A stretch of 32,000 bases of DNA. It comes from Candidatus Korarchaeum cryptofilum OPF8. GTDB lineage: Archaea; Korarchaeota; Korarchaeia; Korarchaeales; Korarchaeaceae. The stretch covers positions 690,001 through 722,000 of the forward strand of contig NC_010482.1 in NCBI RefSeq assembly GCF_000019605.1, in the 5' to 3' direction. The notes under the pieces are model-generated. The model was given only the letters and a program-made list of their open reading frames with translations. It had not been told where the DNA came from and ran no database searches. Positions within the stretch are counted from its first letter, which is position 1. Every line of letters begins with the position of its first letter. The position numbers and the translations under genes were made by a program. Shown piece by piece: positions 4,114-32,000 of this stretch.

Positions 4114-7100
4114 TCACCTCTTCATGACATAGATTCTGAATACCTTCCCCCTCAGCATGTTAGCGACTCTATGAAGTGTTGGATGAGTGGCGAGAAAGAA
4201 TATTGCCTCTGCTCCGGCCAACTTTTCCCTCATCGCTTCCCCATCTAAATGCCTAACTTCCTCCCTCTTTATATTCAAGACCACTGGCTCCATCAGGGGG
4301 AGACCGTAATTCTTCATCTTCTCTTCCAACTTGCTCAGGATCATCTTCCTGTAACCGTGGGGCACTAAGAAAGCCAGCTTCATCCCTGGGACCCCGTTTT
4401 CCACCATATAGAGTAATGCTACAAAGGATAGGAGCTCGCAAAGATATTCCTTATTTATATATGCGGCCCTATAGTGTATATAACCGTTCCTCATTAGGGG
4501 GTTGTAGTACTTCAAGAATTCCCTGTGATCCTCGATTACCTGCTCCCTCAACCCCCGGACCATGCCCCTGTAAAGCTCCTCTATTGAACTTGAGAGGTAC
4601 TCCTCTATCCTTCTCTTCGCGATAGAGTCCCTCTCCTCCCTAGATGCTTTCAGCAGGAGTGAGGAGAACTCGTTCATTAGGTAGAGGGAGAAGAGAGTGT
4701 GGAATTGGTCATCGGAGATGAAAGCAGCTACTTCCTCAATTGGAACCCTCTTTATCGAGCTCACCTTTATTGCCTGCGTGGGGACGTTCGTCACAGGGAT
4801 CCAGTTCTGCTTCCGGTGTTCACTCACTATTATATCTCCACTCTCGCTGAGATACAGATCGCCCCGGCCGACGGCCTGAGCGTCGCCCGTCAGGCCCTTA
4901 CCATTTATGGGATATAGGGGTCCTTTGAACGATCTCCTGTCAACCAGCACGAATTTCTCGCGTACTATATCGTAATTGAGAATATTTAGATTGGATAGTG
5001 TGTTCAAAGCCCTCTCAATAGCGTTCTCGAGGAATTCGGGCAGGCGGCCCTGAGACCTCAGAGAATCCATTAAATCGCTCTCATCGTACTTCCACAGGAG
5101 GAGAGGAGCTAGGAGAATCATCGGAACAGATGCCCCCTCATCCGCACGCGATATAGCAGAATAAATTTTAGTTACGAGCATTGGATCCAGCAACGTCCTC
5201 TTTATTAGTGCCAGCCTGCGCTCATAATCGTATCCCGGGGAGTAGAGCATGACAGCTCTGCAGATTTTACCGTCCCTGCCTCCCCTCCCTATCTCCTGAT
5301 AGTAATCTTCTATGCTCTCTGGCATCATGTAGTGGACGACCCACCTCACGTTGGGGATATCCACCCCCAGACCGAAGGCCTTAGTGGCCACCACTATCCT
5401 TGGCTCCTTAGCTTCCCCTCTGCTGACTCTGTAAATCCTGTTAAGGACATCTTTCTTCTCCGAATCGCTCATCTGGCCGTGAAAATAGATGACGTTTCTC
5501 CCGAGATTCTCGGAGAGGAAATCAGCTATATATGGGGCGTTCTCATGCTCCTTAGTGGACCTCACGAATCCAGTGTATATTATGCCGAGCCAGGGAGAGC
5601 TTCCTGAGAAACTATCGGCCCACCTGGATAGCTCACTTACCACATTAAGCAGCTTATATAATCTTTCTTGACCGCTGGGTGCCTCCACAACATCTATTAT
5701 TATATTATCCCTTATCGCAGGCCCCTTGAAAACCTTTACCTGCTCTGTATCTGGCTTTGATGGATCGAAGTCTGTGTTGAAATCTATTTCCTCCATATTG
5801 AACTTCTCATCCCCTGTCAGGACCTTGATCACCTCCTCCAATCCCTTTCCCGGCAGAGTCGCGGTGAAGCCAGCTAGAGGCAACCAGAGGCCATATTCCC
5901 TGCTCCTCTTGATGTACTGAGCTAGATACTCGTAGCTCGGCCTGAAAGTCCTGCCCCATTTGTAAAGCGTGTGGATCTCATCTATCACCAGGTAATTTAT
6001 GTCGGCCCTCTCGAGGCTCCTCCTGACTTCCTCCTTCTCCAGCTGCTCGGGGGTGATGTAAACTATATCGTATCCCCCTCTAGCCAGCCCCCTTATGTAC
6101 TCATCCAGCCTGTCGCGCGCCATACTCGTGATAGCGCAGGCCCTCACCCCTCTGGACAGCAGGCTGTTGAGGTGATCCTCTATAAGGGCCAGCAATGGGG
6201 AGATAACGACGGTAGTCCCTCCAATTTTCCTCCTCAGGAAGAGGGCGACCGATTGGAATATGAGGGATTTCCCGGAGCCCGTGGGCAGTATAGCTATCGA
6301 GAAAGGTCTGTCTAGCAGGAGTCCCTGATATGTATAGGGCATCAGCAACCGGGCCACCAGTCTCCTCTGATATGGCCTTAATGAGAAGCCCCAGACATCC
6401 CTAACAATCTCCTCTAGCTCTTTTATGGCTTCCTTCAGGGAGGGGAAGGTTGCGTAGGACATACTAATGGGTGGCGCCAGAGGCCTGACCTCCACTTCCT
6501 CCACGAAATCGCTCAAGTTGAGCCGCCTGATCAACTCCCTATCCGCGTTCACTATGATGCAAGTCCCTCCAGATAGACGCAGGACCTCCACTAGGGACTT
6601 CAGCATCACCTCCTCTCCCGATCTGACGAGGGTCCTGGTCGAATAGAGCACTATATTGTAGCCCATGGAAGCGAATTTGTTCACCCTCTCGAGGGTCCTG
6701 ATGAGATCCCCCGAGCGATGCACCTCCGCCCTAGCCCTCATGCGGTAAGATACTTCCCTAGAGACGATCTCTTCAGCGGAGTTGGACACGAGCACGAGGC
6801 TCCTCCCCCTCTGAATGACCGCAGCAAGCAACCCTCCGAAGAGGTTGGAGTGACGGGAGCTCTTATCGATCCCATCCTTTACCAGATAGAGAGTCCTCTT
6901 CACCTCGGGCCTCCTGTATTCCACATCGACAGCGAGATCGAAGGGTGTCTCCAGCTCCACCTTGCTGAAGGTAGCAGATAACTGCTTCAGCAGGCTCGAG
7001 TAATCCTGATAATAGGCCCTCAGGAGGTAAGCCCCTCTGAGGACTATCTTGGACTCCGCCCTCCCCCTCATCCTCCCTAGGAGATCCTTCAGGTACCTGT

Positions 7101-8331
7101 ACTCGACCACGAATCCCTCGGATGGGTCCCTCAGTTGATTGTCCCTCGTTATCCTCTCCACTACCGATGCCAGGGCCTTCTTCAGATCCTCATAAGGCAT
7201 CTCAAGTGCTCTAAGCCTCTCAGGATCCCCTCCGGCTGCGGCGAATGACTTCGCGATAGTTAAGGCGAGCCTCTGGAGGGGAGTGAGGTCCCCTAAATCG
7301 GAGGATGGATCCAAGCTCTTCGGATACCAGGCATCGGAGAAGCTCGAAGCATCTATCGTGACCACTACCTCCCCTCTCTTAGACCCCCTCACCCTGAGCT
7401 GGCGAAAATCCGTCGCAACTTCCGGTATTCTCACTTCCCTCAGACCGGAGAGCGGTTCAAAAGGCACAGCTTTTATCTCCGGGAGTATGCCCTTCCTCTT
7501 CGCTACATGGATGAGCTTCGGGAGTATCGTGAGGGATGCGTGAGCATCTTCATCCGCTCTGTGGGGCGTGTAATCCACTTTGAACAGGAAGGAGAGGCCC
7601 TCGAGTGAGTGGCTGAGGGCCTCGGGTACCGAGATCAGTGCTAATGCGTAGGTATCTATGAACCTCACATCCCCGAAATGGACTCCCCAGGATCTCAGGA
7701 CGTCGATATCGAAGGAGTAGATGTTATGGCCCACCAAGACCCTGAACCTCCTGATCAATTTCGAGAGGAAAGCCTGGGGGATGGAACCGTAAGTCTCGGA
7801 GATTTCCTCAGGCTTTATGTTGAGTCTAGCCAGCTCCTTCCAATCGCTGCTCCTCAATGCTATTAGACCTATTTCCCTCGGCTTCTTATCGTACTCTATC
7901 TCGGTCTCTATATCCAGCCCCAGGATATCGCTCTCACGGAGGAAGTATACCCTGTCGTCAGCTATCCTCAAACGCCCTATGATAGCGAGGAATTTGTTGA
8001 ACTCCCCCCTGAAGAATAGTAGATCTATGCCTGCCGATATTAATCCCCTGTCCATGAGTAGGATACTCAGCCTTGAGCCCGATAGCAACTTGAAGACTCT
8101 ACCTACGTCTTTATGCCGAATTGCATCCTCCAGCTCGTCATTGATCCTCTTCCTGTAGTAGAGGATCGATATTAGGATGAGCAGAGCAATTATGCCCAGT
8201 ATTGAGGGGCTTAGGATGCTATTCTCAATAATAGCACCCTTCGGGAGCCCCATCCCCTCCAAGTATCGGCACCGCACTGAATTACCGGAAAATAATAAAA
8301 GATTGTGTGAAGCTGCGACGGAGGAGCCCAT
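4114..8331 (-). CDS. 1405-aa fusion: N-terminal TM helix + DnaQ-like DEDDh 3'-5' exonuclease + RecQ-family DExH helicase + ~400-aa unknown C-terminal region
   Basis: TM segment 'ILGIIALLILISILYY' (~8157-8208). Exo I is 'LGLDIETE', Exo II 'VGHNIYSFDIDVL' and Exo III 'HRADEDAHAS' (~7490-7930). RecQ motifs are 'ILPTGSGKSLIFQ', 'VISPLLALIEDH', 'LVIDEIHTLYKWGRTFRPSY', 'GFTAT', 'VATKAFGLGVDIPNVRWVVHY' and 'YYQEIGRGGRDG' (~5250-6400). An alternative start is M27 at 8253. Confidence 0.9.
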   Translation of the reverse strand: MGSSVAASHNLLLFSGNSVRCRYLEGMGLPKGAIIENSILSPSILGIIALLILISILYYRKRINDELEDAIRHKDVGRVFKLLSGSRLSILLMDRGLISAGIDLLFFRGEFNKFLAIIGRLRIADDRVYFLRESDILGLDIETEIEYDKKPREIGLIALRSSDWKELARLNIKPEEISETYGSIPQAFLSKLIRRFRVLVGHNIYSFDIDVLRSWGVHFGDVRFIDTYALALISVPEALSHSLEGLSFLFKVDYTPHRADEDAHASLTILPKLIHVAKRKGILPEIKAVPFEPLSGLREVRIPEVATDFRQLRVRGSKRGEVVVTIDASSFSDAWYPKSLDPSSDLGDLTPLQRLALTIAKSFAAAGGDPERLRALEMPYEDLKKALASVVERITRDNQLRDPSEGFVVEYRYLKDLLGRMRGRAESKIVLRGAYLLRAYYQDYSSLLKQLSATFSKVELETPFDLAVDVEYRRPEVKRTLYLVKDGIDKSSRHSNLFGGLLAAVIQRGRSLVLVSNSAEEIVSREVSYRMRARAEVHRSGDLIRTLERVNKFASMGYNIVLYSTRTLVRSGEEVMLKSLVEVLRLSGGTCIIVNADRELIRRLNLSDFVEEVEVRPLAPPISMSYATFPSLKEAIKELEEIVRDVWGFSLRPYQRRLVARLLMPYTYQGLLLDRPFSIAILPTGSGKSLIFQSVALFLRRKIGGTTVVISPLLALIEDHLNSLLSRGVRACAITSMARDRLDEYIRGLARGGYDIVYITPEQLEKEEVRRSLERADINYLVIDEIHTLYKWGRTFRPSYEYLAQYIKRSREYGLWLPLAGFTATLPGKGLEEVIKVLTGDEKFNMEEIDFNTDFDPSKPDTEQVKVFKGPAIRDNIIIDVVEAPSGQERLYKLLNVVSELSRWADSFSGSSPWLGIIYTGFVRSTKEHENAPYIADFLSENLGRNVIYFHGQMSDSEKKDVLNRIYRVSRGEAKEPRIVVATKAFGLGVDIPNVRWVVHYMMPESIEDYYQEIGRGGRDGKICRAVMLYSPGYDYERRLALIKRTLLDPMLVTKIYSAISRADEGASVPMILLAPLLLWKYDESDLMDSLRSQGRLPEFLENAIERALNTLSNLNILNYDIVREKFVLVDRRSFKGPLYPINGKGLTGDAQAVGRGDLYLSESGDIIVSEHRKQNWIPVTNVPTQAIKVSSIKRVPIEEVAAFISDDQFHTLFSLYLMNEFSSLLLKASREERDSIAKRRIEEYLSSSIEELYRGMVRGLREQVIEDHREFLKYYNPLMRNGYIHYRAAYINKEYLCELLSFVALLYMVENGVPGMKLAFLVPHGYRKMILSKLEEKMKNYGLPLMEPVVLNIKREEVRHLDGEAMREKLAGAEAIFFLATHPTLHRVANMLRGKVFRIYVMKR

Positions 8332-17915: not shown

Positions 17916-18050
17916 GAAAGACCTTTCATGAGTGGTTAGCGGCCCAGAATCTGATCTTATAACAGCTGCGTAGCCCCAACACTAGGATATCCTCGAACTA
18001 ATATTTGAGCGAAATCCTTATAACTAACTAGCCGCTTTTATTACTTCTTG

Positions 18051-18431
18051 ATGATTATACTAACCCATGGAAAATATAAGGAAAATGCTGGATTTATCTT
18101 CTTTGGAAAAGATAAGGAGTTAAATTTGGTGAGGGAGGGAGACAGAAGGGAGGAGGTATGCACTCCTAATTTCCTAAGTACTCTTTTAGAATGTATTTCT
18201 TTAGATTATATTTCGACCTCTAAGTTAGAAAAAATAATTGAAATAAGTGGGGAGAAAATAAAAGAAAGATCAATAAAAATAGAAAATCGAGTAAAGAAGA
18301 TACATAAAAGAGTGAAAATAAACAATAATGGGAGGATCCAGGGCTATCAGATTGATATCGCCCCTGTATGGCATAAAGGATTATCCACTAACGAGAGGGC
18401 ATGCGGGAGGTGGAAATATGGAAATATTTAA
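18051..18431 (+). CDS. hypothetical small protein, possible first gene of the AT-rich operon
   Basis: A ~126-codon open frame in ~32% GC DNA, where stops are frequent. It overlaps the next start by 14 nt. It is Lys/Glu/Ile-rich, and no motif was recognised. Confidence 0.3.
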   Translation: MIILTHGKYKENAGFIFFGKDKELNLVREGDRREEVCTPNFLSTLLECISLDYISTSKLEKIIEISGEKIKERSIKIENRVKKIHKRVKINNNGRIQGYQIDIAPVWHKGLSTNERACGRWKYGNI

Positions 18432-20520
18432 AAGAATAATAGCACTATTTAGGAAAATTTCTCGCATCTTTCAAAAGAAGGAGTTATATATAGGGGATCT
18501 ATCCAGGGAGCAAAGAAGCGAACCTTCTACTGCCGTAGAGAACATAATAGATAAGGAAGAAGCTCGGGGAGAATTGGAAAAAGAGATTGAGGGTAAGTCT
18601 ATAAGAGAGCTAGAAGAGAGAGTAGAACAGAGTATTCCTGAAGGAAGGAGAAGGAAAAAGCCTCAAAAAAAGAGAGCTCCTACTGAACAGGATATAAAGA
18701 CAAGAAGGACTGTTTATAAAGAACAGAGGGTACACGCGATAGGAAAAGAGGTGAAACTAGGCAAAAAGAGATCTACAGGGAGAGCTAAGAGGCCAAAGTC
18801 ATTAGAGGCAGTTCCAAAGGAAAGAAGAGAGGAAAAATCGGCTCAATCCTCTATAAGAGTGAGAGCGCCATTTGTTGAAATTGATCTTGACAGGGCTAAG
18901 GTTTTTCTCGTGATCCCAAAACAAAGCTTAACGGTAGAAAATTCCTCTAAAAAACAATTGAGTTATAGGGTATCCTTAGATAACGAAGTAGAAAGACCGC
19001 TTCCAGTTGGAATTACCGGTAATGAAGAATATCCAGAAACAGAAGAAGAAAGGATTGAAATAGAAAAACCTATAAAAAATTTTAAGGTTGCCTATCCAGA
19101 AGAGCTTGAAGGTAGGAATTATACTTACGAACATAGGGATGATTCTATTTATACTTTCATCGCTGTTGGAGATGGTCTAGGCAGAATGCACTATCTATAC
19201 GAAGATGGGAACATCAATCCACTTCCTCAAAGAGAAATATGGGTCCTTCTTGAGGAGGATTTTGAGCCCGAGATCGAACCGATTTTAGAGGAGGATAGAT
19301 GGATCTGGGAAAAATATAGGCCATTATATATCGATTTGAGAGATAAAAGTGAATTAGTTATAATAAATAGAAAGTTAAATAAAAGAGAAGCTATACCTTG
19401 TAAATCTACTTTTTCCATTGAAGGCGAAGAGATTATTTATGATGATTTCAGCGATCAATCTCCTATTTTTACGGGTAACAGTATTAAAATAAAAGCTCCA
19501 ACAATAAATGAAGAAGGATGGGTCGTTTATGTTCAAAACAAACAAGATGGTTATAAGATTGTTTCCGATAATTGGTTAGGGAAGGATCCCCTTGAGCTGA
19601 GATTTGACCGTGATCTACCCTGTGAATGCGGGGAATTCCAGGTAGATATCTGTGGGCAAGATGGGAAATCTGTTAACACACTGTTCTTCAGGTATATTCC
19701 ATCTTTGCGATTAAATTATTCGAGGGAACTCATCATCCCAGATCCCAAGAAGGGCCATAAAACAGAGAGAGTTGAGATTTCACTTCCATATGCAGAATAT
19801 TTTGAAATAGAAACTGAAGAGCAAATAAAACCCACCCCGAAAGGATATGAGATCATTTTACCACCGAAAAGAGATGTCTTTAGGTTCTCCATCTTCAAGA
19901 AGAATAAGCCGGAAACTAAAGTAAGCTTCAGAGTAACGGTTCCAAGATTAAAATGGAAGACCTCAAGACATATAGATTGGAGGGATACTCCGCTACGTTT
20001 AGAGAGGGAAGAACTGCTCACTAGCGAAGAACTCTACCTCTATATCAATACGAATAGTTTTCCTAACTATAATATTTCGGCGATACTCGAGGCAAATAAC
20101 CAGAAACTGCAGGAATCAAAGTTTGTTAGAAAGAGAAATATTTACAGCATCTTATTAAACCAATTTTATGATACTATTAAGGAAAGCAAAGGTAGGATTG
20201 TGCTTAAGATTAAAATCCTTAAAAACGAAAGGATCATAGGTGAAAATATTCCCGTTCTATATCTCTCTGAAAAGATAACGCTTAGACCTATCCCGCGAGG
20301 ATCGAGAAAGAGTATGAGACCGATTGTAAGGTGCGGCATGGGCATGAGGGAAGGAAGGGGCTTTAGTAAAGAAGAAATAATCCAGGCTGGGATTAGAATA
20401 GAAGATGCTAAACGATTGAACATTCCGTATGATAAGCATAGGAAGTCAGCACATCCCAAAAATATCGAGATTTTAAGATCGTTAGTTGAAGGTGATAATT
20501 ATGCCGATAGATCCGATTAA
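18418..20520 (+). CDS. ~700-aa orphan protein: basic/acidic disordered N-terminus, beta-rich middle, C-terminal ribosomal-protein-L13e-like module
   Basis: ATG 18418 is preceded by 'GGAGGTGG' 5 nt upstream. The 2.1-kb frame is uninterrupted in AT-rich DNA. The first ~150 aa are K/R/E-rich. The C-terminus reads 'RPIVRCGMGMREGRGFSKEEIIQAGIRIEDAKRLNIPYDKHRKSAHPKNIEILRSL'. The stop lies 20 nt inside the downstream helicase gene. Confidence 0.8.
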   Translation: MEIFKRIIALFRKISRIFQKKELYIGDLSREQRSEPSTAVENIIDKEEARGELEKEIEGKSIRELEERVEQSIPEGRRRKKPQKKRAPTEQDIKTRRTVYKEQRVHAIGKEVKLGKKRSTGRAKRPKSLEAVPKERREEKSAQSSIRVRAPFVEIDLDRAKVFLVIPKQSLTVENSSKKQLSYRVSLDNEVERPLPVGITGNEEYPETEEERIEIEKPIKNFKVAYPEELEGRNYTYEHRDDSIYTFIAVGDGLGRMHYLYEDGNINPLPQREIWVLLEEDFEPEIEPILEEDRWIWEKYRPLYIDLRDKSELVIINRKLNKREAIPCKSTFSIEGEEIIYDDFSDQSPIFTGNSIKIKAPTINEEGWVVYVQNKQDGYKIVSDNWLGKDPLELRFDRDLPCECGEFQVDICGQDGKSVNTLFFRYIPSLRLNYSRELIIPDPKKGHKTERVEISLPYAEYFEIETEEQIKPTPKGYEIILPPKRDVFRFSIFKKNKPETKVSFRVTVPRLKWKTSRHIDWRDTPLRLEREELLTSEELYLYINTNSFPNYNISAILEANNQKLQESKFVRKRNIYSILLNQFYDTIKESKGRIVLKIKILKNERIIGENIPVLYLSEKITLRPIPRGSRKSMRPIVRCGMGMREGRGFSKEEIIQAGIRIEDAKRLNIPYDKHRKSAHPKNIEILRSLVEGDNYADRSD
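20314..20490 (+). other. L13e-like domain (C-terminal ~60 aa of the 18418..20520 product)
   Basis: It matches the conserved core of eukaryotic/archaeal L13e as I recall it: human RPL13 '..[62 protein letters not shown]'. The shared elements are RPIVRC, GRGFS-EE, AGI, I--D-(R/H)R and N---L. Confidence 0.7.
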
Positions 20521-23500: not shown

Positions 23501-25333
23501 AATATCTTGAGTTGCTCAACTACATTCGAGCTAGGAGTGGATATTGGAGAATTAGAAGCTATCTTTTTACGTAATGTCCCACCAGAACCCTCAAACTATA
23601 TTCAGCGCGCAGGAAGAGCAGGAAGAAGACTCGGTACCATAGGATTTATTCTGACTTTCGCCCAACTTCGTTCTCATGACCTTGCATACTTTAAAGAGCC
23701 AGAAAAAATGATTGAGGGAAGAATAAAGCCACCTATCATTGAACTCAAGAATGAGAAGATAATTTCCCGTCATCTCTACTCCATTGCAATTGCGGATTTC
23801 TTCAGAAAATTTAGCGATTATTTCGGGGATGCGGACTCGTTTTTCAGATTTGAAGAAGGTATTTCAGGCACAGAGAGAATAAAGGAGTATCTTCTCACAA
23901 AGCCCGAATCCATCCTGAAATCATTAAAAAGAGTCATACCTGAGGACTTGCAGAAAGTTTTTGGAGTTGATGATTGGAAATGGGTTGATGGTCTTGTGGG
24001 TAAAGAAGGTGTTCTTACAAAAGCAGACGAGAAAATAAGGGACGAATTTACCAGGCTTAAGGAATTCTATAGATTAAAGGAGGAAGAATGGAATAGTGCC
24101 CAAGATCAGCAAAAAAGAAACAAAATACATGCAGATATGAACTGGGCATACAAAAGAAAGGAGACTATTAAGAGAAAACAGCTCATAGATTTCTTAGCAT
24201 CTCATGCAGTTATTCCCAAGTATGGTTTTCCAGTGGATGTTGTTGAATTGGACATCCTATCACACCAGGACGCTGCTAAAAATATCCAGCTAGAAAGAGA
24301 CTTGAGCATAGCTATTTCAGAATTCGCGCCAGGGAGTCAGGTAGTTGCAAATGGGTATATTTGGGAGAGTGAAGGGTTGAAAGTCGTGAGAAATAGGACA
24401 TGGCCGATTTACTGGTATGCTATCTGCAGTGAATGCAATAAATTTTTCATAAAAAGTGGAACAATAGAAGAAAACCCACCCTCCTTCTCATGCGATGTTC
24501 ATGGACCCATCTCACGGGGGGATATACATAGATTTGTCACGCCAATATTTGGCTTTGTGACCTCTAAGGATTTTGAGCCAAAGAAACCGGGTGAATCGAG
24601 ACCAAAGCATGAGTTTACCACAAGACCATACTTCTTCAGTTATGAGAAACCAGAGGAAAGAATATTCACTATTGGCAGATTTAAGATTAAATGTAAGTAC
24701 TCTTCCGATGGAGAATTAGCCGTTATCTGTAAGGGGAAGAAGGGTGGATTTTGGATATGTTTTGATTGCGGTGCGGCTTTCCCGGAGAGAAAAAGAAAGC
24801 ATAAAACGCCTTACGGGATGGACTGCACATCACCTTTGAAAGGCCCGTTTCACCTTGGACATACTTTTAAGACTGACGTGCTTTCTATTTCATTTGAAGA
24901 GCCAAATATAAATGAAAGTTATATTAGAGAGATATTTAGATCAAAGTCTATTAAGATAAATAATAAGTTTGTAGAAAGCTTCTGGCTATCCCTCTTATAT
25001 GCAGTACTAGAGGGCGCAAGCCAGGCCCTCGGGATAAAAAGAGAGGATCTGAATGGATGCCTCCATTCATCTGAGGGCAGAATTATGCTAATATTGTTTG
25101 ATAATGTTCCTGGTGGAGCTGGGCATGTAAAACGAATAATGAGCGAGAGAAACTTGTATGAGGTTCTCAAGGGTGCCCTAGCCCGAGTCAAGAATTGCGC
25201 ATGTGGGCTTGAGACCAGTTGTTATGGATGCCTCCGAAGTTATGAGAATCAATTCTGTCATGACCTACTGAAGAGAGGCGTTGTCTGGGAGTTTCTTGAA
25301 AGAAATCTGGAGGGGGATCAGTTACGTAGATAG
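20501..25333 (+). CDS. ~1610-aa DEAH-box SF2 helicase with multiple zinc ribbons and C-terminal DUF1998 (MrfA-type Zn-binding) domain; DrmA+DrmB / DruE-like
   Basis: ATG 20501 follows a 'GGTGA' SD. Motif I is 'ASGTSSGKTE' (~20831), Ia 'YPMNALANDQ', II 'VLDEAH' (~21275), III 'ASATL', IV-like 'IFSDSRQDAAF' (~22490), 'HTAQL..STTFELGVDIGELEAIF' and VI 'QRAGRAGRR'. CxxC pairs lie at ~22039, 22237, 22354, 23266/23311, 24424 and 24760. The C-terminus 'LFDNVPGGAGH...CACGLETSCYGCLRSYENQFCHDLLKRG' is the DUF1998 signature. Confidence 0.9.
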   Translation: MPIDPIKVTQNIRESYIRYLTSTFHLRDEQFRSKFRQEVEAFSFIKGPILEATPPFERGCHLKDLIREGLLSDKLESFIFDAMDYLRNNPLYLHQEKAIRKIIKGRNVLIASGTSSGKTECFLIPIYNHLLREYEEGRLTPGVRALLLYPMNALANDQLRKLRKIARVMEEKIPEVKITFGRYVGDTPEAKGDGLEKFKLMNPKEKPVESELLSREEMRENPPHILITNYAMLEYLLLRPKDSPFFDGEYARNWKFLVLDEAHIYSGATGIEMAMLIRRLKDRVCKNMEGDLQCIAASATLVRGEEDFEKVADFATKLFGERFEWDPEDSERQDIIKGERIKIEGSKAEFKASLNLYLELEDRIIQDTSSPTLEQLYKTCEENGIPKSILDNSRDICDNNPKRFLYEVLSKDEMAIKLKSLLEGGAKGIDECAKYLLEKDEPSKEEYSQIISLINVLVWARPDEDSLPLLPARYHLFVRAPEGVFISFYPEPRIFLERRELTDDGYPVFELASCRRCGQEYLVGEVVEGKLKHSFAEVDTQRKNRYFMLWGEDIKLKEDEDQEVAVPEEIAKEGDVWKLCVKCGSIWKDKPTCNCDHERDSVRTLIEVTPKDTVLNKCYLCGLRSIDIVREFIFQRDAPAAVLTTALYQNLPRDHARERKILIFSDSRQDAAFFAPYLEFTYKRILFRRLIVEAIKGNRLEDYRLESLCEDVLRLGEKSKVFDPAKDEKERKKEVWKWIIQEFCGIWDRRNSLEGVGLVSFILIFPENWRPIKELQEPPWNLTEDEARALYQTLLNSMRFNMAITFPDGLNSQDEFFSPRNREYKFRGEGSDTGRGIYSFIPSQGRTNARLEYLEKLYKKITGKEDENNECRELLGKIWEDLRDNWVDRGIQRFSNSRDGVLYKLDYRYWRIIQPNTSWFICDRCGVIVPSSVRGVCPTFGCNGNLIPIDNQKFEDLERNHYRYLYTHLEPIVMAPHEHTAQLTTDHASNIQQKFIRGDINILSCSTTFELGVDIGELEAIFLRNVPPEPSNYIQRAGRAGRRLGTIGFILTFAQLRSHDLAYFKEPEKMIEGRIKPPIIELKNEKIISRHLYSIAIADFFRKFSDYFGDADSFFRFEEGISGTERIKEYLLTKPESILKSLKRVIPEDLQKVFGVDDWKWVDGLVGKEGVLTKADEKIRDEFTRLKEFYRLKEEEWNSAQDQQKRNKIHADMNWAYKRKETIKRKQLIDFLASHAVIPKYGFPVDVVELDILSHQDAAKNIQLERDLSIAISEFAPGSQVVANGYIWESEGLKVVRNRTWPIYWYAICSECNKFFIKSGTIEENPPSFSCDVHGPISRGDIHRFVTPIFGFVTSKDFEPKKPGESRPKHEFTTRPYFFSYEKPEERIFTIGRFKIKCKYSSDGELAVICKGKKGGFWICFDCGAAFPERKRKHKTPYGMDCTSPLKGPFHLGHTFKTDVLSISFEEPNINESYIREIFRSKSIKINNKFVESFWLSLLYAVLEGASQALGIKREDLNGCLHSSEGRIMLILFDNVPGGAGHVKRIMSERNLYEVLKGALARVKNCACGLETSCYGCLRSYENQFCHDLLKRGVVWEFLERNLEGDQLRR

Positions 25334-25492: not shown

Positions 25493-26740
25493 TCAAGTTG
25501 ATCCGTAAGAGAGGCTAGCGAGCCTCTTCAGTAAATCCGGAGACTTCGTGTGTATGGGCTTCACATCCTTGGGCCTCACTACGCTCATTATACGCGTCAG
25601 CTGATAGGGATAGTAGTGGCCCGATGCCCTCATCCTGTAGTGCTGCACCCCCATGGCGGAGAGCCAGTTAGCTATCACATCGTATTCCAACGCCTCCTCT
25701 ACCTCAGGCTCCGGCTCAGAGAGTACCGCCACGGGGCTCCTCATAGCAGGGCGGAAGCTCGGATCCCTCAGTAAATCTACTATCTCCCTGTGGGAGGTAA
25801 GTATGAAAGAGTTCCCTCCTATCTCCTCAAGGGAAACCTTCTCCCTCATCGTCGGATATCTCACGAAATCCTCAACAAGATTTATCTCAACGGGGGGCTC
25901 TGGTATCCTCTCCAGGAGCTTAGCTATTTGAGCCGATGCAACGTAGCAATCGAATCCGAGCTCCTTCGCTATCTCGAGAATGAGGTAAGCGTACTCGAAG
26001 TCGAGACCATGGAGTGTGAATAGCATGGGAGCTTGAGAGGATTTTTGGGAGATAGCGATCCTCCTTATCATATTTGCGACATCATCCGGTGAGATAGGTG
26101 TCCTATTCGACCCTACATTCGTCCCCTCTATTATGAGAGTGTCCACTCTCACATCCGGATTCTCCCCCAAGTAAGTGAGGAGATCCTCGCCTATTAGCTC
26201 GAGGAACCTCTCCTCCCCGAGGAAGCCGTCGACTCTGAAGTCCCCTGTGTAAAGAATCGTCCCCTCTCTGCCGAAGTACAGGAATGCGTATGCTGGATAG
26301 GCGCTGTGGGATACTGGAAGTGGAATCACACCGTTTTCATCCTCTTCTAAAGGTTTTATCTCCCTTATCTCCAGGAAATATCTCCCTGCAACTAGCTGGA
26401 GCCATGAGGAGGAGTTCTCCCATCTCTCCTTCATATCCTCGTATACCGAGAGGCTCGGCAGGTATACGCGAGTCTCCGAGGGTATGTTGTGCAGGAGCCC
26501 CAGATGATCGAGGTGCATGTGCGATATGTATATGCCGCTGGCGTCCATGTACCATTCCTGCTTCGGGATGACCCCGAGTCTCCTGAGCTCAGCTATCCCC
26601 TGAGGCGTTACCTGCATAGAGTAATACCTGCTCATTATATCGAATCTGATCCCCTGATCGAATACAAGAGTTTTATCTCCATCCCTTATCCTTACAAAAT
26701 TCCCACCTATGCTGTTCTCCCCGGACAGTATCTCTATCAA
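25493..26740 (-). CDS. metallo-beta-lactamase-fold nuclease, RNase J-like (MBL/beta-CASP)
   Basis: The 'HMHLDHLG' (HxHxDH) motif is present. The RNase J-like N-terminus is 'IEILSGENSIGGNFVRIRDGDKTLVFDQG'. Also present are 'TLIIEGTNVG' and 'RASGHYYP'. The preferred start is TTG 26740, which overlaps the SNF2 stop and has GGAGG 7 nt upstream. The ORF-track ATG at 26836 adds a non-homologous 32-aa extension lying inside the SNF2 gene. Confidence 0.75.
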   Translation of the reverse strand: MIEILSGENSIGGNFVRIRDGDKTLVFDQGIRFDIMSRYYSMQVTPQGIAELRRLGVIPKQEWYMDASGIYISHMHLDHLGLLHNIPSETRVYLPSLSVYEDMKERWENSSSWLQLVAGRYFLEIREIKPLEEDENGVIPLPVSHSAYPAYAFLYFGREGTILYTGDFRVDGFLGEERFLELIGEDLLTYLGENPDVRVDTLIIEGTNVGSNRTPISPDDVANMIRRIAISQKSSQAPMLFTLHGLDFEYAYLILEIAKELGFDCYVASAQIAKLLERIPEPPVEINLVEDFVRYPTMREKVSLEEIGGNSFILTSHREIVDLLRDPSFRPAMRSPVAVLSEPEPEVEEALEYDVIANWLSAMGVQHYRMRASGHYYPYQLTRIMSVVRPKDVKPIHTKSPDLLKRLASLSYGST

Positions 26741-29673
26741 GGCTTCCCCTCCTTCGGCCTCAGGATGTACCTCCTCTCCACCCTCTCGAATGCCTCCCAG
26801 TTCATGGTGCTGACCGGATCCCTGAACCTGATCCATTCGGGATCGGTCCCTATATTGTAAACTATGTAGAGCCAGTACCTTTCCCTCTCCCTCTCAGCGA
26901 GCTCTGCTTCGTAAGAAGTCAGCTCCCCGTATACTTCAGGCCCCAGATGGCCCTTCACCTCTATTATCCTAACTTCCTTCGTGGATGGATCGACGCTCCT
27001 TATATCGTAGTGCTCCTCCTCCGGGACTACCTCGGGGATCCTCCCCTCATCCCTCTCCACCTTCATGACGATCTCAAGGGCCTTCTTCTCTACCTCCTTT
27101 TTGACTTCCTCCGGGATATCTAAGCTTCCCTTAGGGGGCTCGATGAACTGTATGGATCCCAGATCGTTGGAAGTCCCTATATCGAGGTCCTCAGCTTTCA
27201 TCCAGTTATCCGGACCCCTGAGTCCCTCCTCCTGCAACTTCCTGGAGTAGTTGATGATCGGTGAGAGGAGTTCCCTACAAGATTTCTGGAATTCATTTAT
27301 CACTATGGCCCTCAATTCCACGGAGATATCCGAGTTAGGTATCTCGGCTATTCCAACTAAATTCGAGATCGCTGATGAGATTAAGTCAATGAGTTCGGAT
27401 CCTCTTATGACCTTCTTTTTCTTTAGATCTATCCCGATGGGCTCCTTGTAGAGCAAACCCCAGCTCCTCCTATCCCTTATCTCCACTAGTTTTATGAGCA
27501 CCCTCCCATTTGGCCCGTAGGCCACTAGATTCACCGGAGATGAACTCTTACACTCCCCGAGAAGCATGCCATAGATTGTCCTTAAGCTTGTTACCGCTAC
27601 GGGCATCTCCGATCCCCTGATAACCTTTAGCTCATCCCCTTCCGAGAGAACCCTCAACCCGAGGAAGCCGGATGCTGACTTGAGGAGCTTCTTCATCGAA
27701 TCCATCAAGTCATGATGACTCTCGAATCCGATCTGGGCTATCGTATTTATTATCGCTTCCCTAGTTTTTTGAGCGTACAGCACCCCCTTGGACTTCAGTT
27801 CCCTCTCTATCTCCTGCTTGGCAGCTATTATGGACTCTATTAGGTCGCTCAGGCCCTTCTCATCTTTCCTCAGATAGGTCTCTATTAATTTAGCTTCAGT
27901 AACCTTGAAGAACCTTTTCTTCCCCTTCTCACTCTTCGTCACGACGTAAGGAGGCAGCTTCGTGAGATCCTCCGTTTCCGTATAGAGGATCACTTCCTGC
28001 CCGGTTATAGGCCTCGCGCCCAAATCCGCTCTCTTCAGGTTGAGGAGCTTCTCGTAGATGGATCTAAGCGCAGTGCTATCGGCTTTATTCGCCATGAAGA
28101 GGGTGTATATCTCAACCTCCCTCCTCTGCCCGAGCCTCCACACCCTGCCTATCCTCTGCTCCAGTTTTATCAGGCTCCAGGGGACCTCGTAATTTATCAG
28201 GATATGAGCTACCTGCAGGTTCAGGCCCTCAGCCGCGACATCCGTAGCTATGAGAACTCTAGCCCTAGGATCCCTCTCAAAAGCTCTTCTTATTTCCATG
28301 AATTTCTTCTCATCAGCCGTTTCATCCGAACTGAGTCTGAGGATCGAGCCTTCAGGCCACCCCTCATTCAGGAGCTTTTTCATTATGTAGTCGAGCGTGT
28401 CCTTATACTCGGTGAAGACTATGACCTTCGAATCCTCCTTCACCTCATCCAGCAGGGAAATTAGAGCTTTTAGTTTACTGTCTCCCTCCCTCATTATATC
28501 CCTCGCCATCTCAACGAGCTCCCTCATCTCCTCCCTATCCCTCTCGGACATGAGGGAGGATGTGGCATCCAGGAACTCCTCCATGATCTCCTCGGGATCT
28601 CTTCCCGGATACTCCTGATCCTCATATCCGGTTCCCAAGAGCGTCTCCACGCTGTGCATCAGTTCCTCCAAATTCTCGTGGGCTGTCCTCCTCAACAGCA
28701 GTCTCTCGAGAGTCGTCACAGCGGCATAGGGGCTGGAGGATGCCCTCTTGAATATGAGAACTAATAGGAGGGGGAGTGCCTTCTTGCTGAGCTCCTCCTT
28801 CTCATAGGCGAGATCTCTGAGTTTTGACTTCAGGAAATTGAGAAGTCTATTTATGAACTCCTCTTCATCCTTCCTCACCTTTATAACTGTCGCGTAAAAT
28901 CTGGCCATTGGGAATATCTCTTTTCCCTCGTATATCTTGTTTATCTCCTCCTTCGTCCTCCTGAAGATTATAGCTCCATGCGTCAGCTCATAGAACTGCT
29001 TCCTATCCAACGATCTCCAATCCTCCAGGTAGGGATCAAGGAGCCGAAGCCTCGATATGTAATCTGCGGGATCCCCTCTGTGAGGTGTCGCTGAGAGGAA
29101 TATCACATTCCTTCTGGGCTTTCTCTCTATAAGCTCCCTTCCTACCTCTTTGAATCTCTTCGTCTTCATCCCAAGCTTATGGGCTTCATCTACAATTATT
29201 ATATCCCATGGGACATCCAGAACTTCTTTTATCCTTTTCTCCCTTTTTATGAAGTCCATTGATGAGAGATAGTATCCATCAGGGAACCCCTGCTTTTTTA
29301 GATACTCTATGTTATCCCTCTCTATCTGATTAACTTTACCTATGCCCATCCTCTCGAGCTCCTTCCTCCACTGCGGTATGAGGACCCTGGGGACTATTAT
29401 CAACGCCTTGGATACTCTACCCACTCCTTCCATATATCTGGAGATCGCTAGGGCCGTTATCGTCTTTCCAAGCCCTATCTCATCCCCTATGAGGACTCTG
29501 ACGGGGTTCCTGAGAGCGAGTCTAGCGAGGACTTCGCACTGATGGAGGTAGTGCTGAGGGGGGTCCTCCGCGGAGGTCCGGAGATACGGGTATATCAGGG
29601 GGTGATAGCCCAGCTCATTCAAGAATCCTGAGATGAAGCCGATTACCCCATCCTTGAGTTTCATTACTATCAC
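26737..29673 (-). CDS. SNF2-family helicase with C-terminal DUF3883-like / PD-(D/E)xK-like domain
   Basis: Motif I is 'LIGDEIGLGKTI', II 'IIVDEAHKLG' and III 'FLSATP'. V is 'LIATDVAAEGLNLQ' and VI 'PWSLIKLEQRIGRVWRLGQ'. The C-terminus reads 'HYDIRSVDPSTKEVRIIEVKGH....YWLYIVYNI' (D...EVK, ~26790-27010). The track start is GTG 29673, and ATG at 29664 (MKLKDG) is equally plausible. Confidence 0.9.
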   Translation of the reverse strand: MIVMKLKDGVIGFISGFLNELGYHPLIYPYLRTSAEDPPQHYLHQCEVLARLALRNPVRVLIGDEIGLGKTITALAISRYMEGVGRVSKALIIVPRVLIPQWRKELERMGIGKVNQIERDNIEYLKKQGFPDGYYLSSMDFIKREKRIKEVLDVPWDIIIVDEAHKLGMKTKRFKEVGRELIERKPRRNVIFLSATPHRGDPADYISRLRLLDPYLEDWRSLDRKQFYELTHGAIIFRRTKEEINKIYEGKEIFPMARFYATVIKVRKDEEEFINRLLNFLKSKLRDLAYEKEELSKKALPLLLVLIFKRASSSPYAAVTTLERLLLRRTAHENLEELMHSVETLLGTGYEDQEYPGRDPEEIMEEFLDATSSLMSERDREEMRELVEMARDIMREGDSKLKALISLLDEVKEDSKVIVFTEYKDTLDYIMKKLLNEGWPEGSILRLSSDETADEKKFMEIRRAFERDPRARVLIATDVAAEGLNLQVAHILINYEVPWSLIKLEQRIGRVWRLGQRREVEIYTLFMANKADSTALRSIYEKLLNLKRADLGARPITGQEVILYTETEDLTKLPPYVVTKSEKGKKRFFKVTEAKLIETYLRKDEKGLSDLIESIIAAKQEIERELKSKGVLYAQKTREAIINTIAQIGFESHHDLMDSMKKLLKSASGFLGLRVLSEGDELKVIRGSEMPVAVTSLRTIYGMLLGECKSSSPVNLVAYGPNGRVLIKLVEIRDRRSWGLLYKEPIGIDLKKKKVIRGSELIDLISSAISNLVGIAEIPNSDISVELRAIVINEFQKSCRELLSPIINYSRKLQEEGLRGPDNWMKAEDLDIGTSNDLGSIQFIEPPKGSLDIPEEVKKEVEKKALEIVMKVERDEGRIPEVVPEEEHYDIRSVDPSTKEVRIIEVKGHLGPEVYGELTSYEAELAERERERYWLYIVYNIGTDPEWIRFRDPVSTMNWEAFERVERRYILRPKEGKP
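26738..26752 (-). promoter_or_regulatory. translational-coupling junction (SD + overlapping stop/start)
   Basis: The reverse strand reads 'GGAGGggaagccTTGA'. The SNF2 TGA (26739..26737) overlaps the nuclease TTG (26740..26738) by 2 nt, and GGAGG sits at 26752..26748. Confidence 0.5.
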
Positions 29674-29791: not shown

Positions 29792-32000
29792 TCAGCCTTT
29801 ATGACCCTTCCTCCTCACTAGGAGTTTGAAGATAGCTCTTCCATTCAGTTGAGATAGCACCGCTATTTTCTGGTCATCCAACACCACATGATTCTCGAGC
29901 TCTATGCTTCCATTTAAATGCGTCCTCAATCCGAGCTGGCTCGCTTGCCTTGATATTTCATCTAACTTCTGGACTAGGAACCTCGCTATATCTATGCTCA
30001 CCCCCTCCATTGAGAAGCGTATATTCCCCCCGAACTCAGCATCGATATTCACTTTAGCCTTCATGCCCAGCTTGCTCACATTTTCTATCGCTATTTTCAG
30101 CGAAATTAGATCGGAACTACTTATTGATAGGAGCTTCTCTCCAGAGATGCTGCTATCTATCTTATCTACGTCTCTCTCCTCCTCAGGGCTCAAGATGACT
30201 ATGGAGACGGATTCCTCCTTGAGCAGCCCGTCCGAGCTCACTGCCCTTATCTTCAGGGGAAACCTCCCCACCCTCCTGGGCGTTACCTCCCATGAGACCT
30301 TCATCGGAGGCCTGCCTTTCCCCTGACTGAGCTCCCCTTCCTCTACCTGGAGCTTTATCTCCTCCGAATAATCTTCTACGGGTTCTATGGATATCTCGAA
30401 TACTGCCTTCTCTCCCTGGTTCAATTCCACATGCTTCGGTTTCACATCGAGAACGAAGCCTCTCTTCAGCTCCTCCTCCCTCTTCTCTATCACCCCGGCC
30501 CTCAAGACCTCTTCCCATCCTTCCTGCTTCACCAAGTCCTCGAGAGGTATTCTCTCCCCTCCAATCTCTACTTCGTACCAGATCCTCTTCGTTACTCCGT
30601 TCTTCCGCACACCGCTTTTGGAGAGGAGCTCCTCCTTCATCTGCTCCGCAGCCCTCTTCCAGGGGAGTATCACTGCTGTATCCCTCAATCCCTTCGGCCT
30701 CTCAGCGCCTGAGGATCCGATTCTCTTCCAGTAGAGTCCCCCCTCTATCTTAATCCCTATATCCAGTTTATCCAGGCCCTCGAGGAGGGCTTCCTCAACC
30801 GCTTTTTGCGTAGTGAAGGGAGCCGCTGTATTCGTGTAGAATACATCCATGATTTCCTTGAACTCGAACTGCCTGTCTCCATTCACTAAATCCCATCCGA
30901 GATTGTCCTTAAGAAAATCGGAGATATCCTTGAATTCCAGTTTTGTCCTGAGCTTCGGTCCAGTTCTCGGGTCTTTGAGCGCCGCTTCCACCTGCGATAT
31001 GAGGTAGGAGGAAGGGCTCGCTTCCACGATCTTTATATCGTTCCCCTCCTTCCCCTTGTATGGGTAAGCGACCTTCGTTAGGAGGGAGAGTATCTGCTGC
31101 ATCAAGTATCCTTTGTTTTCATTAATGTAACTCTCCAACTTATTACTCTGGATCTTTATTATGTCCTTATCCGTGTAGTACTCGCTCAGGTTTTCCTTTA
31201 TTTCTTCAGCTGCTTCTATCTTCGCTACATATCTGAGCTCATCCTCTAAGTTCGATTTCGATGGGAATACTACTGCTATCGTATTTGCATATGTTCTCTT
31301 TCCTCCTCCGGGTTCTCTCAGTATTATATTCCTCAGCTCCTCCTCACTAACATCCGGTTTTACCATTACGACTAACCTCAACGATTTCTCGTCCCTCAGT
31401 TCTCTCCCTATGTCATCTCCATATCCCAGTGTAATCACGTTATTACTGTCAAATACCTCGCCTGATGGCTTCTCTCCCTTCTTGCGGGTTCCGGATGTGT
31501 CTCCTTTAACATGACTTTTTACATAATTGACCAGCTTCCTGTGGAGGTCGAGGATCGCGCCTCTCAGCATCTCATCAGCTCTCCTCTCTACGTACTCCAA
31601 GACCGATGGATAGGGCGTGAACCAGAACCTGTTCTCCTCCCCGGTGAAGTGGGGGAGTTTGACCAGCATCTCCTCTACCGTGGCCTCTATATCTGGTGGC
31701 TGAAGATCGCTTGATGAAAAGCTCTCGGGATCGTAGGTCATCAAAGCTATGTCCTTCAGATCTGGGAATACTTTTAGAGGCTCTTTGAATGTTTCATAGG
31801 TGTAGGTCTTCAATAATACGACTGTAGCTATCTTGAGGGCGAGCGCTGGCTTTGAGCAGTTCGCGATAGAGCCGAGGCTTCCATCCTCGGATACTATGTC
31901 CCTGCTCGCGACATCCCTGAAATTCTTGTAGCTCTCTGTGAGGACCAGGTTCCTTATATCCTTATCCCTCAGGTCTATGTGCCACGGCATTATGAACTCC
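29792..32000 (-). CDS. large protein (>=732 aa; frame still open at window edge), tentatively the non-ATPase part of a DUF499/BrxC-like protein plus an Ig-like beta-sandwich region
   Basis: The 2.2-kb frame is uninterrupted, and the three codons upstream of ATG 31990 (EFI) contain no stop. 'RFWFTPYPSVLEYVERRA' and 'GGGKRTYANTIAVVFPSK...LRYVAKIEAAEEI' resemble conserved DUF499 segments as I remember them. No Walker A is present in the visible part. Residues ~520-620 ('FVLDVKPKHVELNQGEKAVFEISIEP...FPLKIRAVS') look like a beta-sandwich. Confidence 0.5.
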   Translation of the reverse strand, partial: EFIMPWHIDLRDKDIRNLVLTESYKNFRDVASRDIVSEDGSLGSIANCSKPALALKIATVVLLKTYTYETFKEPLKVFPDLKDIALMTYDPESFSSSDLQPPDIEATVEEMLVKLPHFTGEENRFWFTPYPSVLEYVERRADEMLRGAILDLHRKLVNYVKSHVKGDTSGTRKKGEKPSGEVFDSNNVITLGYGDDIGRELRDEKSLRLVVMVKPDVSEEELRNIILREPGGGKRTYANTIAVVFPSKSNLEDELRYVAKIEAAEEIKENLSEYYTDKDIIKIQSNKLESYINENKGYLMQQILSLLTKVAYPYKGKEGNDIKIVEASPSSYLISQVEAALKDPRTGPKLRTKLEFKDISDFLKDNLGWDLVNGDRQFEFKEIMDVFYTNTAAPFTTQKAVEEALLEGLDKLDIGIKIEGGLYWKRIGSSGAERPKGLRDTAVILPWKRAAEQMKEELLSKSGVRKNGVTKRIWYEVEIGGERIPLEDLVKQEGWEEVLRAGVIEKREEELKRGFVLDVKPKHVELNQGEKAVFEISIEPVEDYSEEIKLQVEEGELSQGKGRPPMKVSWEVTPRRVGRFPLKIRAVSSDGLLKEESVSIVILSPEEERDVDKIDSSISGEKLLSISSSDLISLKIAIENVSKLGMKAKVNIDAEFGGNIRFSMEGVSIDIARFLVQKLDEISRQASQLGLRTHLNGSIELENHVVLDDQKIAVLSQLNGRAIFKLLVRRKGHKG

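Follow-up and report, generated by a model that had tools for sequence, protein, structure and literature searches.

The described defence systems closest to the locus reported here form the Druantia type III branch ('type III-like / III-B', with a compact DruE that lacks PLD nuclease domains). They are two-gene operons in which a partner, DruH, is encoded upstream of DruE, a helicase of the YprA family with an MZB (DUF1998) domain. According to recent studies, DruH binds single-stranded DNA (ssDNA) via its C-terminal residues, or processes and trims 3′ ends, and it contacts DruE and hands substrates over to it (bioRxiv 10.64898/2026.05.12.722862, 10.64898/2026.05.13.724313, 10.64898/2026.05.13.724758). 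According to a 2025 survey of the YprA family, the Dpd YprA helicase ends in an Alba-like domain that binds nucleic acid. Here, we analyzed a stretch of 32,000 nucleotides (nt) from Candidatus Korarchaeum cryptofilum OPF8 (contig NC_010482.1, positions 690,001 to 722,000 of the forward strand), which is referred to below as the window. It carries the gene Kcr_0697, coding for a protein of 700 amino acids (aa), followed directly by a gene for a DruE-like helicase. The C-terminus of the 700-aa protein, called the partner below, is homologous to the core of ribosomal protein eL13 (L13e). This protein is a component of ribosomes in eukaryotes and some archaea. We propose, with a probability of roughly 0.55, that the module is an exapted archaeal eL13 core that would serve as the nucleic-acid-binding head of a DruH-like partner, within a defence module of two genes that resembles Druantia type III.

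In the list of open reading frames (ORFs), the partner region appears as a single long plus-strand ORF (18328-20520), which overlaps the start of a 1610-aa ORF ending at 25333. The homologues of the partner begin with MEIFK..., which agrees with ATG 18418 as the true start, and a Shine-Dalgarno-like site, GGAGGTG, lies in front of this codon at 18406-18412. The length of the protein was therefore set to 700 aa and not 730 aa (ACB07448.1 / WP_012309345.1 / UniProt B1L4R9). Farther downstream, an in-frame ATG is present at 20314-20316, from which the frame reads MRPIVRCGMGMREGRGFSKEEIIQAGIRIEDAKRLNIPYDKHRKSAHPKNIEILRSLVEGDNYADRSD up to the TAA at 20518-20520. Both this codon and the C-terminal peptide are exactly as described in the initial annotation, which had proposed an L13e-like module fused to the end of a protein of about 700 aa, the operon partner of a large helicase. 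The ORF is continuous over the whole length of this fusion.

The resemblance to L13e, claimed from the letters of the peptide, was borne out by profile, sequence and structure comparisons, all of which returned eL13 with significant scores. With Pfam Ribosomal_L13e (PF01294), the whole protein scored 27.3 bits and the 68-aa C-terminal piece 31.1 bits, above the gathering cut-off of 24.9 bits; the match covered profile positions 45-98 of 180. The NCBIfam model of archaeal L13e (NF008914) matched the whole protein with an E-value of 4.3e-14 (51.9 bits) and the module alone with 1.6e-15 (56.5 bits), at model positions 27-76 of 83. In a phmmer search of the PDB sequences, the best match was eL13 of Pyrobaculum calidifontis (9e6q_AH, E 3.9e-7). 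It was followed by dozens of eukaryotic eL13 chains, which can be aligned only with a 5-residue gap that the archaeal alignment does not need. When a profile built from 44 modules was used, the E-value against PDB eL13 improved to 2.9e-12. The AlphaFold2 (AF2) model of the module alone, with a predicted local distance difference test (pLDDT) score of 78, shows a hairpin and three helices, and the 50 top Foldseek matches of this model in the PDB are eL13 without exception (TMq 0.62-0.76). We conclude that residues 633-690 are a true homologue of the eL13 core. They have in common with eL13 (PF01294, arCOG01013, NF008914) the core fold and the pattern GRGFS-x2-E...D-x-RR...N...L.

The module is kept in 58 homologues with a continuous ORF. 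Its invariant residues (G648, S650, D672, R675, N682 and L686) sit in the GRGFS...D.RR...N...L pattern and are identical in the alignment with P. calidifontis eL13. The mean column identity is higher in the module than in the partner core (46% vs 38%). Judging from these alignments, the fusion of the eL13 module to the partner is real and old. The scores stay below the equivalog cut-off of NF008914 (96 bits), also for the Verrucomicrobial module (58.5 bits). The module is nearest to the short archaeal eL13, with P. calidifontis as the best match, the eukaryote-type 5-residue insertion absent, and 52-57 bits with the archaeal model vs 27-31 bits with Pfam. It is thus a divergent paralogue of that protein, a relation that the initial annotation had raised for checking. 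Unlike eL13, which is a stand-alone protein of 70-210 aa, the module forms the last 58-70 residues of a 700-aa protein, occurs also in bacteria, and stands in a context of defence rather than translation. One further candidate, Legionella DotG/IcmE (7muc, 9ngw), reached a summed E-value of 1e-14 with the module profile, and was rejected as a repeat artefact: it consists of 16 weak matches, none of them significant singly. The AGFSAKELKDAGFS repeats of DotG (AGFSxxELKxAG type) resemble the GFS-x2-E-x3-AG core of the module, and profiles of the eL13 module can thus catch pentapeptide-like repeat proteins.

The helicase encoded by the second gene (ACB07449.1, 'DEAD/DEAH box helicase' in the database) belongs to the DruE/YprA family, as indicated by the PADLOC models DruE1 (E 4.9e-188) and DruE3 (E 7.5e-164). 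Its relatives in the PDB are a 2108-aa 'DEAD/DEAH box helicase' chain (9tu7_Y, E 4e-74) and YprA (6znp, E 1e-20). Pfam found no nuclease domain in the 1610 residues and nothing after MZB/DUF1998, as in most type III-like helicases of the YprA survey. The first 20 nt of this gene, from the ATG at 20501, are shared with the end of the partner gene; the homologues align from the Met at this position. A similar overlap of about 13-20 nt between the end of the partner and the start of DruE was found in related loci (L004, L005, L009, L012, L016 and L018). Together with a GGTGAT site inside the partner gene (Table 1), the overlap suggests translational coupling. The last residues of the partner look conserved (..ADRSD, ..GNRST) because they mirror, in the other frame, the DruE N-terminus MPIDPI. 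In all 20 related loci, a DruE-like gene directly follows the partner gene. Across these loci, DruE is 56-90% identical to that of the window, and the partner only 35-67%. Scans of the window with Rfam and for tRNA genes gave no match.

The partner family is rare but widespread. A word-indexed search gave more than 136 homologues, and an exhaustive search of 1.84 billion proteins gave 160 representative clusters at E<=1e-3. The family is carried by 17 species genomes of Korarchaeota, Thermoplasmatales, Archaeoglobus and many bacterial phyla. No relative was found among the IMG/VR viral contigs, and plasmids held no close relative, none being above 32% identity. In the best plasmid match, from a Clostridium butyricum megaplasmid, the DruE-like gene is preceded by an unrelated protein of 1069 aa, for which PADLOC gave no match and hhalign a probability of 1%. 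Matches on E. coli plasmids had a helicase-methyltransferase-helicase gene order; these were read as ARMADA-like, not Druantia, and set aside. The eL13 module is present in 14 of the 20 loci, and 13 of these 14 are bacterial (Verrucomicrobiia, Spirochaetes, Firmicutes, WOR-3, Aquificaceae, Eubacteriales, Kryptonium, Acidobacteriota, Cloacimonadota, Gammaproteobacteria and one unclassified bacterium). The fusion and the operon are therefore conserved across domains of life. Since bacterial ribosomes, to our knowledge, lack eL13, the function of the module in the bacterial loci cannot be ribosomal.

Comparison of the family members revealed that the conserved core stops at an 'NQFYDTIK' motif, beyond which the head is variable. 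The eL13 module is the commonest head; it is found in about half of the members and on the deepest branches of the similarity tree of the core. It also ends a far more divergent partner of 1268 aa, which is followed by a DruE of 38% identity. Other members carry three C2H2-like zinc fingers, a very basic helical 'QKKW' module, long helical modules, HEPN, Alba (31-36 bits vs a cut-off of 25) or a complete ribosomal protein uS17 of the bacterial type. The uS17 head occurs in two clusters (P0117 and P0118; locus L001 at 696-2927, and L002), with DruE directly after it. It covers Pfam positions 1-68 of 68 and passes the NCBIfam equivalog cut-off (115.7 bits vs 74). An assembly artefact was ruled out for this fusion by the two distinct clusters on separate contigs, the DruE gene after each of them and their location outside ribosomal operons. 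With uS17, a ribosomal protein seems to have been captured at this position for a second time and independently. In 84 of 121 cases, a member and its nearest neighbour bear heads of one type; the types are intermingled among members with closely related cores, which indicates repeated swapping of the head. Most of the heads are strongly basic: the mean net charge of eL13 heads is +10.9 over 72 aa, and the values for the QKKW heads, S17 heads and Alba tails are +13 to +20, +12 to +17 and +11 to +13, respectively.

Some proteins outside this basic plan were also noted. Relatives of about 1,400 aa (P0161, P0168, P0172, P0173 and P0179) have an extra N-terminal half and an Alba domain at the C-terminus. 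One of them (P0172, L023 7001-11257) follows a split YprA-like helicase (1578-aa helicase and 745-aa MZB protein) as well as UvrD-like and ResIII helicases, a context which indicates that the beta-array scaffold is used also in a different, larger YprA-type system. Heads similar to eL13 also end shorter proteins with unrelated N-termini, namely P0222 (433 aa, L027 7001-8302) and P0245 (559 aa). The contig with P0222 stops 760 bp downstream of the gene.

The architecture of the partner was predicted with AF2 from an alignment of 59 sequences (mean pLDDT 75.7; Table 1). The pLDDT falls below 50 across residues 22-108 and 118-145. In Foldseek, the beta region matched multi-Ig arrays of the PDB (CSF-1R, complement C3/C5 and titin, E 3e-9 to 1e-6), thus resembling arrays of Ig, FN3 and macroglobulin domains. 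In the model, the part predicted with confidence as all-beta spans residues 150-616, and a short linker separates it from the eL13 module. The most conserved motif of the core is LPCECGEFQVDIC (residues 400-412, window 19615-19653), with three near-invariant Cys; W297, D342, F423-F424-R425 and W513 are invariant as well. Together, these residues may make up a site within the beta-sandwich array that binds metal or nucleic acid.

The predicted outline of the partner may correspond to that published for DruH, in which a helical N-terminus is followed by Ig-like domains in the centre and a small domain at the C-terminus; of these, the model shows the Ig-like array and the small C-terminal domain. 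As in Druantia III, the locus consists of two genes, the partner upstream of the DruE/YprA helicase with MZB, and lies in a defence island. It differs in that the partner is shorter (700 aa vs about 1,100 aa in DruH), begins with one helix and a disordered basic linker where DruH has a helical domain, and ends in a swappable head that derives from ribosomal or chromatin proteins. None of the 59 partner members matched the PADLOC models of DruH at E<=1, and the core received no name from PADLOC, NCBIfam or Pfam. When the profile of the partner family was compared with the PDB sequences, DruE-like helicase chains included, only eL13 matched. By these searches, the partner is not detectably a member of the DruH family. 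The Alba-like domain of the Dpd YprA helicase offers another parallel, as it is also a small, housekeeping-type nucleic-acid-binding domain at a C-terminus in a defence system with a YprA helicase. Unlike in Dpd, the domain is here located on the partner scaffold and not on the helicase, the commonest head is ribosomal, and the head varies among close relatives.

The initial annotation had offered several functions for the module, of which an exapted nucleic-acid-binding domain appears to fit best; the ribosome-binding and decoy ideas fit bacterial hosts poorly. The compact, strongly basic eL13 head would most likely bind nucleic acid (ssDNA, forked DNA or RNA) and thereby help the scaffold to hold or recognise an invader-derived substrate, on which the co-translated DruE helicase would then act. 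The head would be made as part of the 700-aa protein and not as a separate ribosomal protein. Nucleic-acid binding is suggested by the basic character of the head, by the invariant residues common to it and P. calidifontis eL13, which would correspond to the rRNA-contacting pattern, and by the alternative heads (OB-fold uS17, Alba and zinc fingers), which are mostly known nucleic-acid binders. It is further suggested by the published binding of ssDNA by the C-terminal region of DruH and by the Alba fusion on the Dpd YprA helicase. By analogy with the published work on Druantia III, the module would act in defence and share the labour with DruE as outlined.

Several points weigh against this proposal. 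Statements on the function of the partner family are inferred throughout, and, as no DruH model matched in any of the 59 members, the mechanism of DruH can be transferred by analogy only. The zinc-finger heads are approximately neutral in charge, and neither HEPN nor the long helical modules count among the classical binders; 'nucleic-acid binding' may therefore misfit some heads. One Druantia III study assigns to the C-terminal domain of DruH a contact with DruE and not with DNA, which would favour docking. The persistence of the eL13 head over divergent cores and DruE clades (38-90% identity) could equally reflect a contact with a conserved surface of DruE.

The main rival is a docking role, in which the eL13 head would act mainly in protein-protein contacts and either dock the partner onto DruE or regulate DruE, e.g., by breaking an autoinhibited dimer. 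The eL13 head stays on partners whose cores are beyond recognition by BLAST, each still beside a DruE-like gene, and the 20-nt gene overlap suggests co-translation and assembly. We nevertheless consider docking unlikely. Although DruE is highly conserved (56-90%), unrelated folds (the uS17 OB-fold, Alba, zinc fingers and helical modules) take the place of the eL13 head, and the different heads occur intermixed on partners with closely related cores. The identity of DruE is also not sorted by head: it is 78% and 73% in loci L007 and L015, which lack eL13, vs 56-61% in L016 and L013, which carry it. A conserved docking surface is not expected to accept such different heads, and this weakens the docking explanation.

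A bolder view holds that the scaffold repeatedly captures housekeeping RNA and DNA binders (eL13, uS17 and Alba) as sensor heads, which would be sensors of RNA or R-loops, or integrated decoys for viral factors aimed at ribosomal or chromatin proteins, and not generic DNA clamps. We regard it as rather improbable. If it were true, it would link a Druantia-type helicase to infection signals derived from translation or RNA, the integrated decoys of plant NLR receptors would have a counterpart in prokaryotes, and a ribosomal protein domain of archaeo-eukaryotic type would have spread through bacteria on a defence system.

It is also distinctly improbable, in our opinion, that the heads are integrated decoys that bait viral factors directed against the ribosome or chromatin, or ribosome- or chromatin-linked sensors that tether the system to ribosomes or rRNA, which in either case would trigger DruE. 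Three of the heads (eL13, uS17 and Alba) do copy nucleic-acid binders that are abundant housekeeping proteins; the uS17 head is practically a genuine bacterial S17 of full length, as a decoy would require; and the frequent swapping of heads recalls the way in which sensor domains of immune proteins diversify. Most systems with eL13 are, however, bacterial, and their hosts have neither eL13 nor its rRNA site, so that there is nothing to mimic. The eL13 heads are divergent paralogues (56-58 bits vs the 96-bit equivalog cut-off), the zinc-finger and helical heads are without an obvious housekeeping counterpart, and the triggers described in the cited Druantia III studies are DNA-centred. For the near-canonical uS17 head, a role as decoy or ribosome tether is attractive, but it does not suit the eL13 heads in bacteria.

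The weakest alternative takes the segment for the functional ribosomal eL13 of the organism. NCBI and UniProt name the 700-aa protein 'ribosomal protein L13e' / '50S ribosomal protein L13e'. In Table S4 of Yutin et al. 2012 (PMC3353972), arCOG01013 has two matches in this genome: Kcr_0697, flagged as N-terminally too long and matched by the C-terminus described here, and Kcr_0816, a stand-alone gene of 216 nt located about 115 kilobases away; by seqscore, Kcr_0697 was ranked as the primary L13e (0.888 vs 0.825). The possibility of a stand-alone product of about 68 aa, raised in the initial annotation, found no support in the alignment, where the column of the ATG at 20314 is Met in 9 of 59 homologues and Ile is the commonest residue. 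Although the database name, the rank of Kcr_0697 as top L13e match and a weak GAGG 13-20 nt upstream of the in-frame ATG favour a ribosomal eL13 made from this codon or released from the long protein, it is largely refuted and extremely improbable, since the internal Met is so seldom kept, the same fusion is kept in bacteria, the module is far under the L13e equivalog cut-off, the gene overlaps a helicase gene in a defence island and is not among translation genes, unrelated domains replace the head in close relatives, and Kcr_0816 is reported as a separate L13e gene. The database name of Kcr_0697 is misleading.

The setting of the partner and DruE genes is a defence island, whose further members are included in Table 1. 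The SNF2/NOV_C helicase and the DUF499 protein resemble an Hma-type (helicase-methylase-ATPase) system; no methylase was visible within the window. The small ORF in front of the partner is annotated as a gene on related contigs. It is kept only in the relatives from Korarchaeota (L021 and L022 at 98% identity, Methanodesulfokora L004 at 40%) and is absent from the other loci. It could represent a third component specific to this lineage, or no gene at all.

Table 1. Positions of the partner-DruE operon, the parts of the partner protein and the neighbouring genes in the window.
Feature	Position	Strand	Remarks
DpdF-like helicase with RNase T exonuclease domain	4114-8331	-	1405 aa
Small ORF	18048..18431	+	127 aa; overlaps partner start; membership in the system uncertain
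Partner gene Kcr_0697	18418..20520	+	700 aa; DruH-like scaffold protein bearing eL13 head
N-terminal amphipathic helix, residues 1-29	18418..18504	+	AF2 helix H2-29, block pLDDT 72-83
Disordered Lys/Arg/Glu-rich linker, residues 30-145	18505..18852	+	net charge +11
Ig/FN3-like beta-sandwich array, residues 146-616	18853..20265	+	all-beta AF2 model, pLDDT ~85-94
eL13-core module, residues 633-690	20314..20487	+	beta-hairpin and three helices, strongly basic
C-terminal tail LVEGDNYADRSD, then stop	20488..20520	+	last 20 nt overlap DruE start
Shine-Dalgarno-like GGTGAT	20491..20496	+	4 nt upstream of DruE ATG, within partner gene
DruE-like YprA-family helicase ACB07449.1	20501..25333	+	1610 aa; DEAD, Helicase_C, C-terminal MZB/DUF1998
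Metallo-beta-lactamase-fold protein	25493-26836	-	
SNF2 helicase with NOV_C domain	26737-29673	-	best PADLOC matches DrmD, BrxHI/II, HmaA
DUF499 protein	29792-31990	-	continues past window end

The similarity of Kcr_0697 to eL13 is already known; it was noted in 2012, is part of the current annotation and has been treated as that of a ribosomal paralogue. What is new is that the protein stands in a defence context, that it has spread into bacteria and that its heads are interchangeable. A search of the literature on Druantia and YprA found no mention of a swappable head derived from ribosomal or chromatin proteins. No paper joining L13e and DruE was found among those searched either, and the 2025 survey of the YprA family names neither ribosomal proteins nor L13. 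The name 'ribosomal protein L13e' is also attached to homologues of 700-800 aa in Methanodesulfokora and a Verrucomicrobiia bacterium. The misannotation is thus propagating, and phyletic profiles of eL13 may be contaminated or distorted by such calls. For the family, the finding describes a rare, widely transferred Druantia-like variant across archaea and bacteria, with heads recruited from ribosomal and chromatin proteins. It offers a natural domain-swap series for probing the debated non-helicase subunit of Druantia, and it shows an archaeo-eukaryotic ribosomal protein domain with a second, non-ribosomal life, bacteria included.

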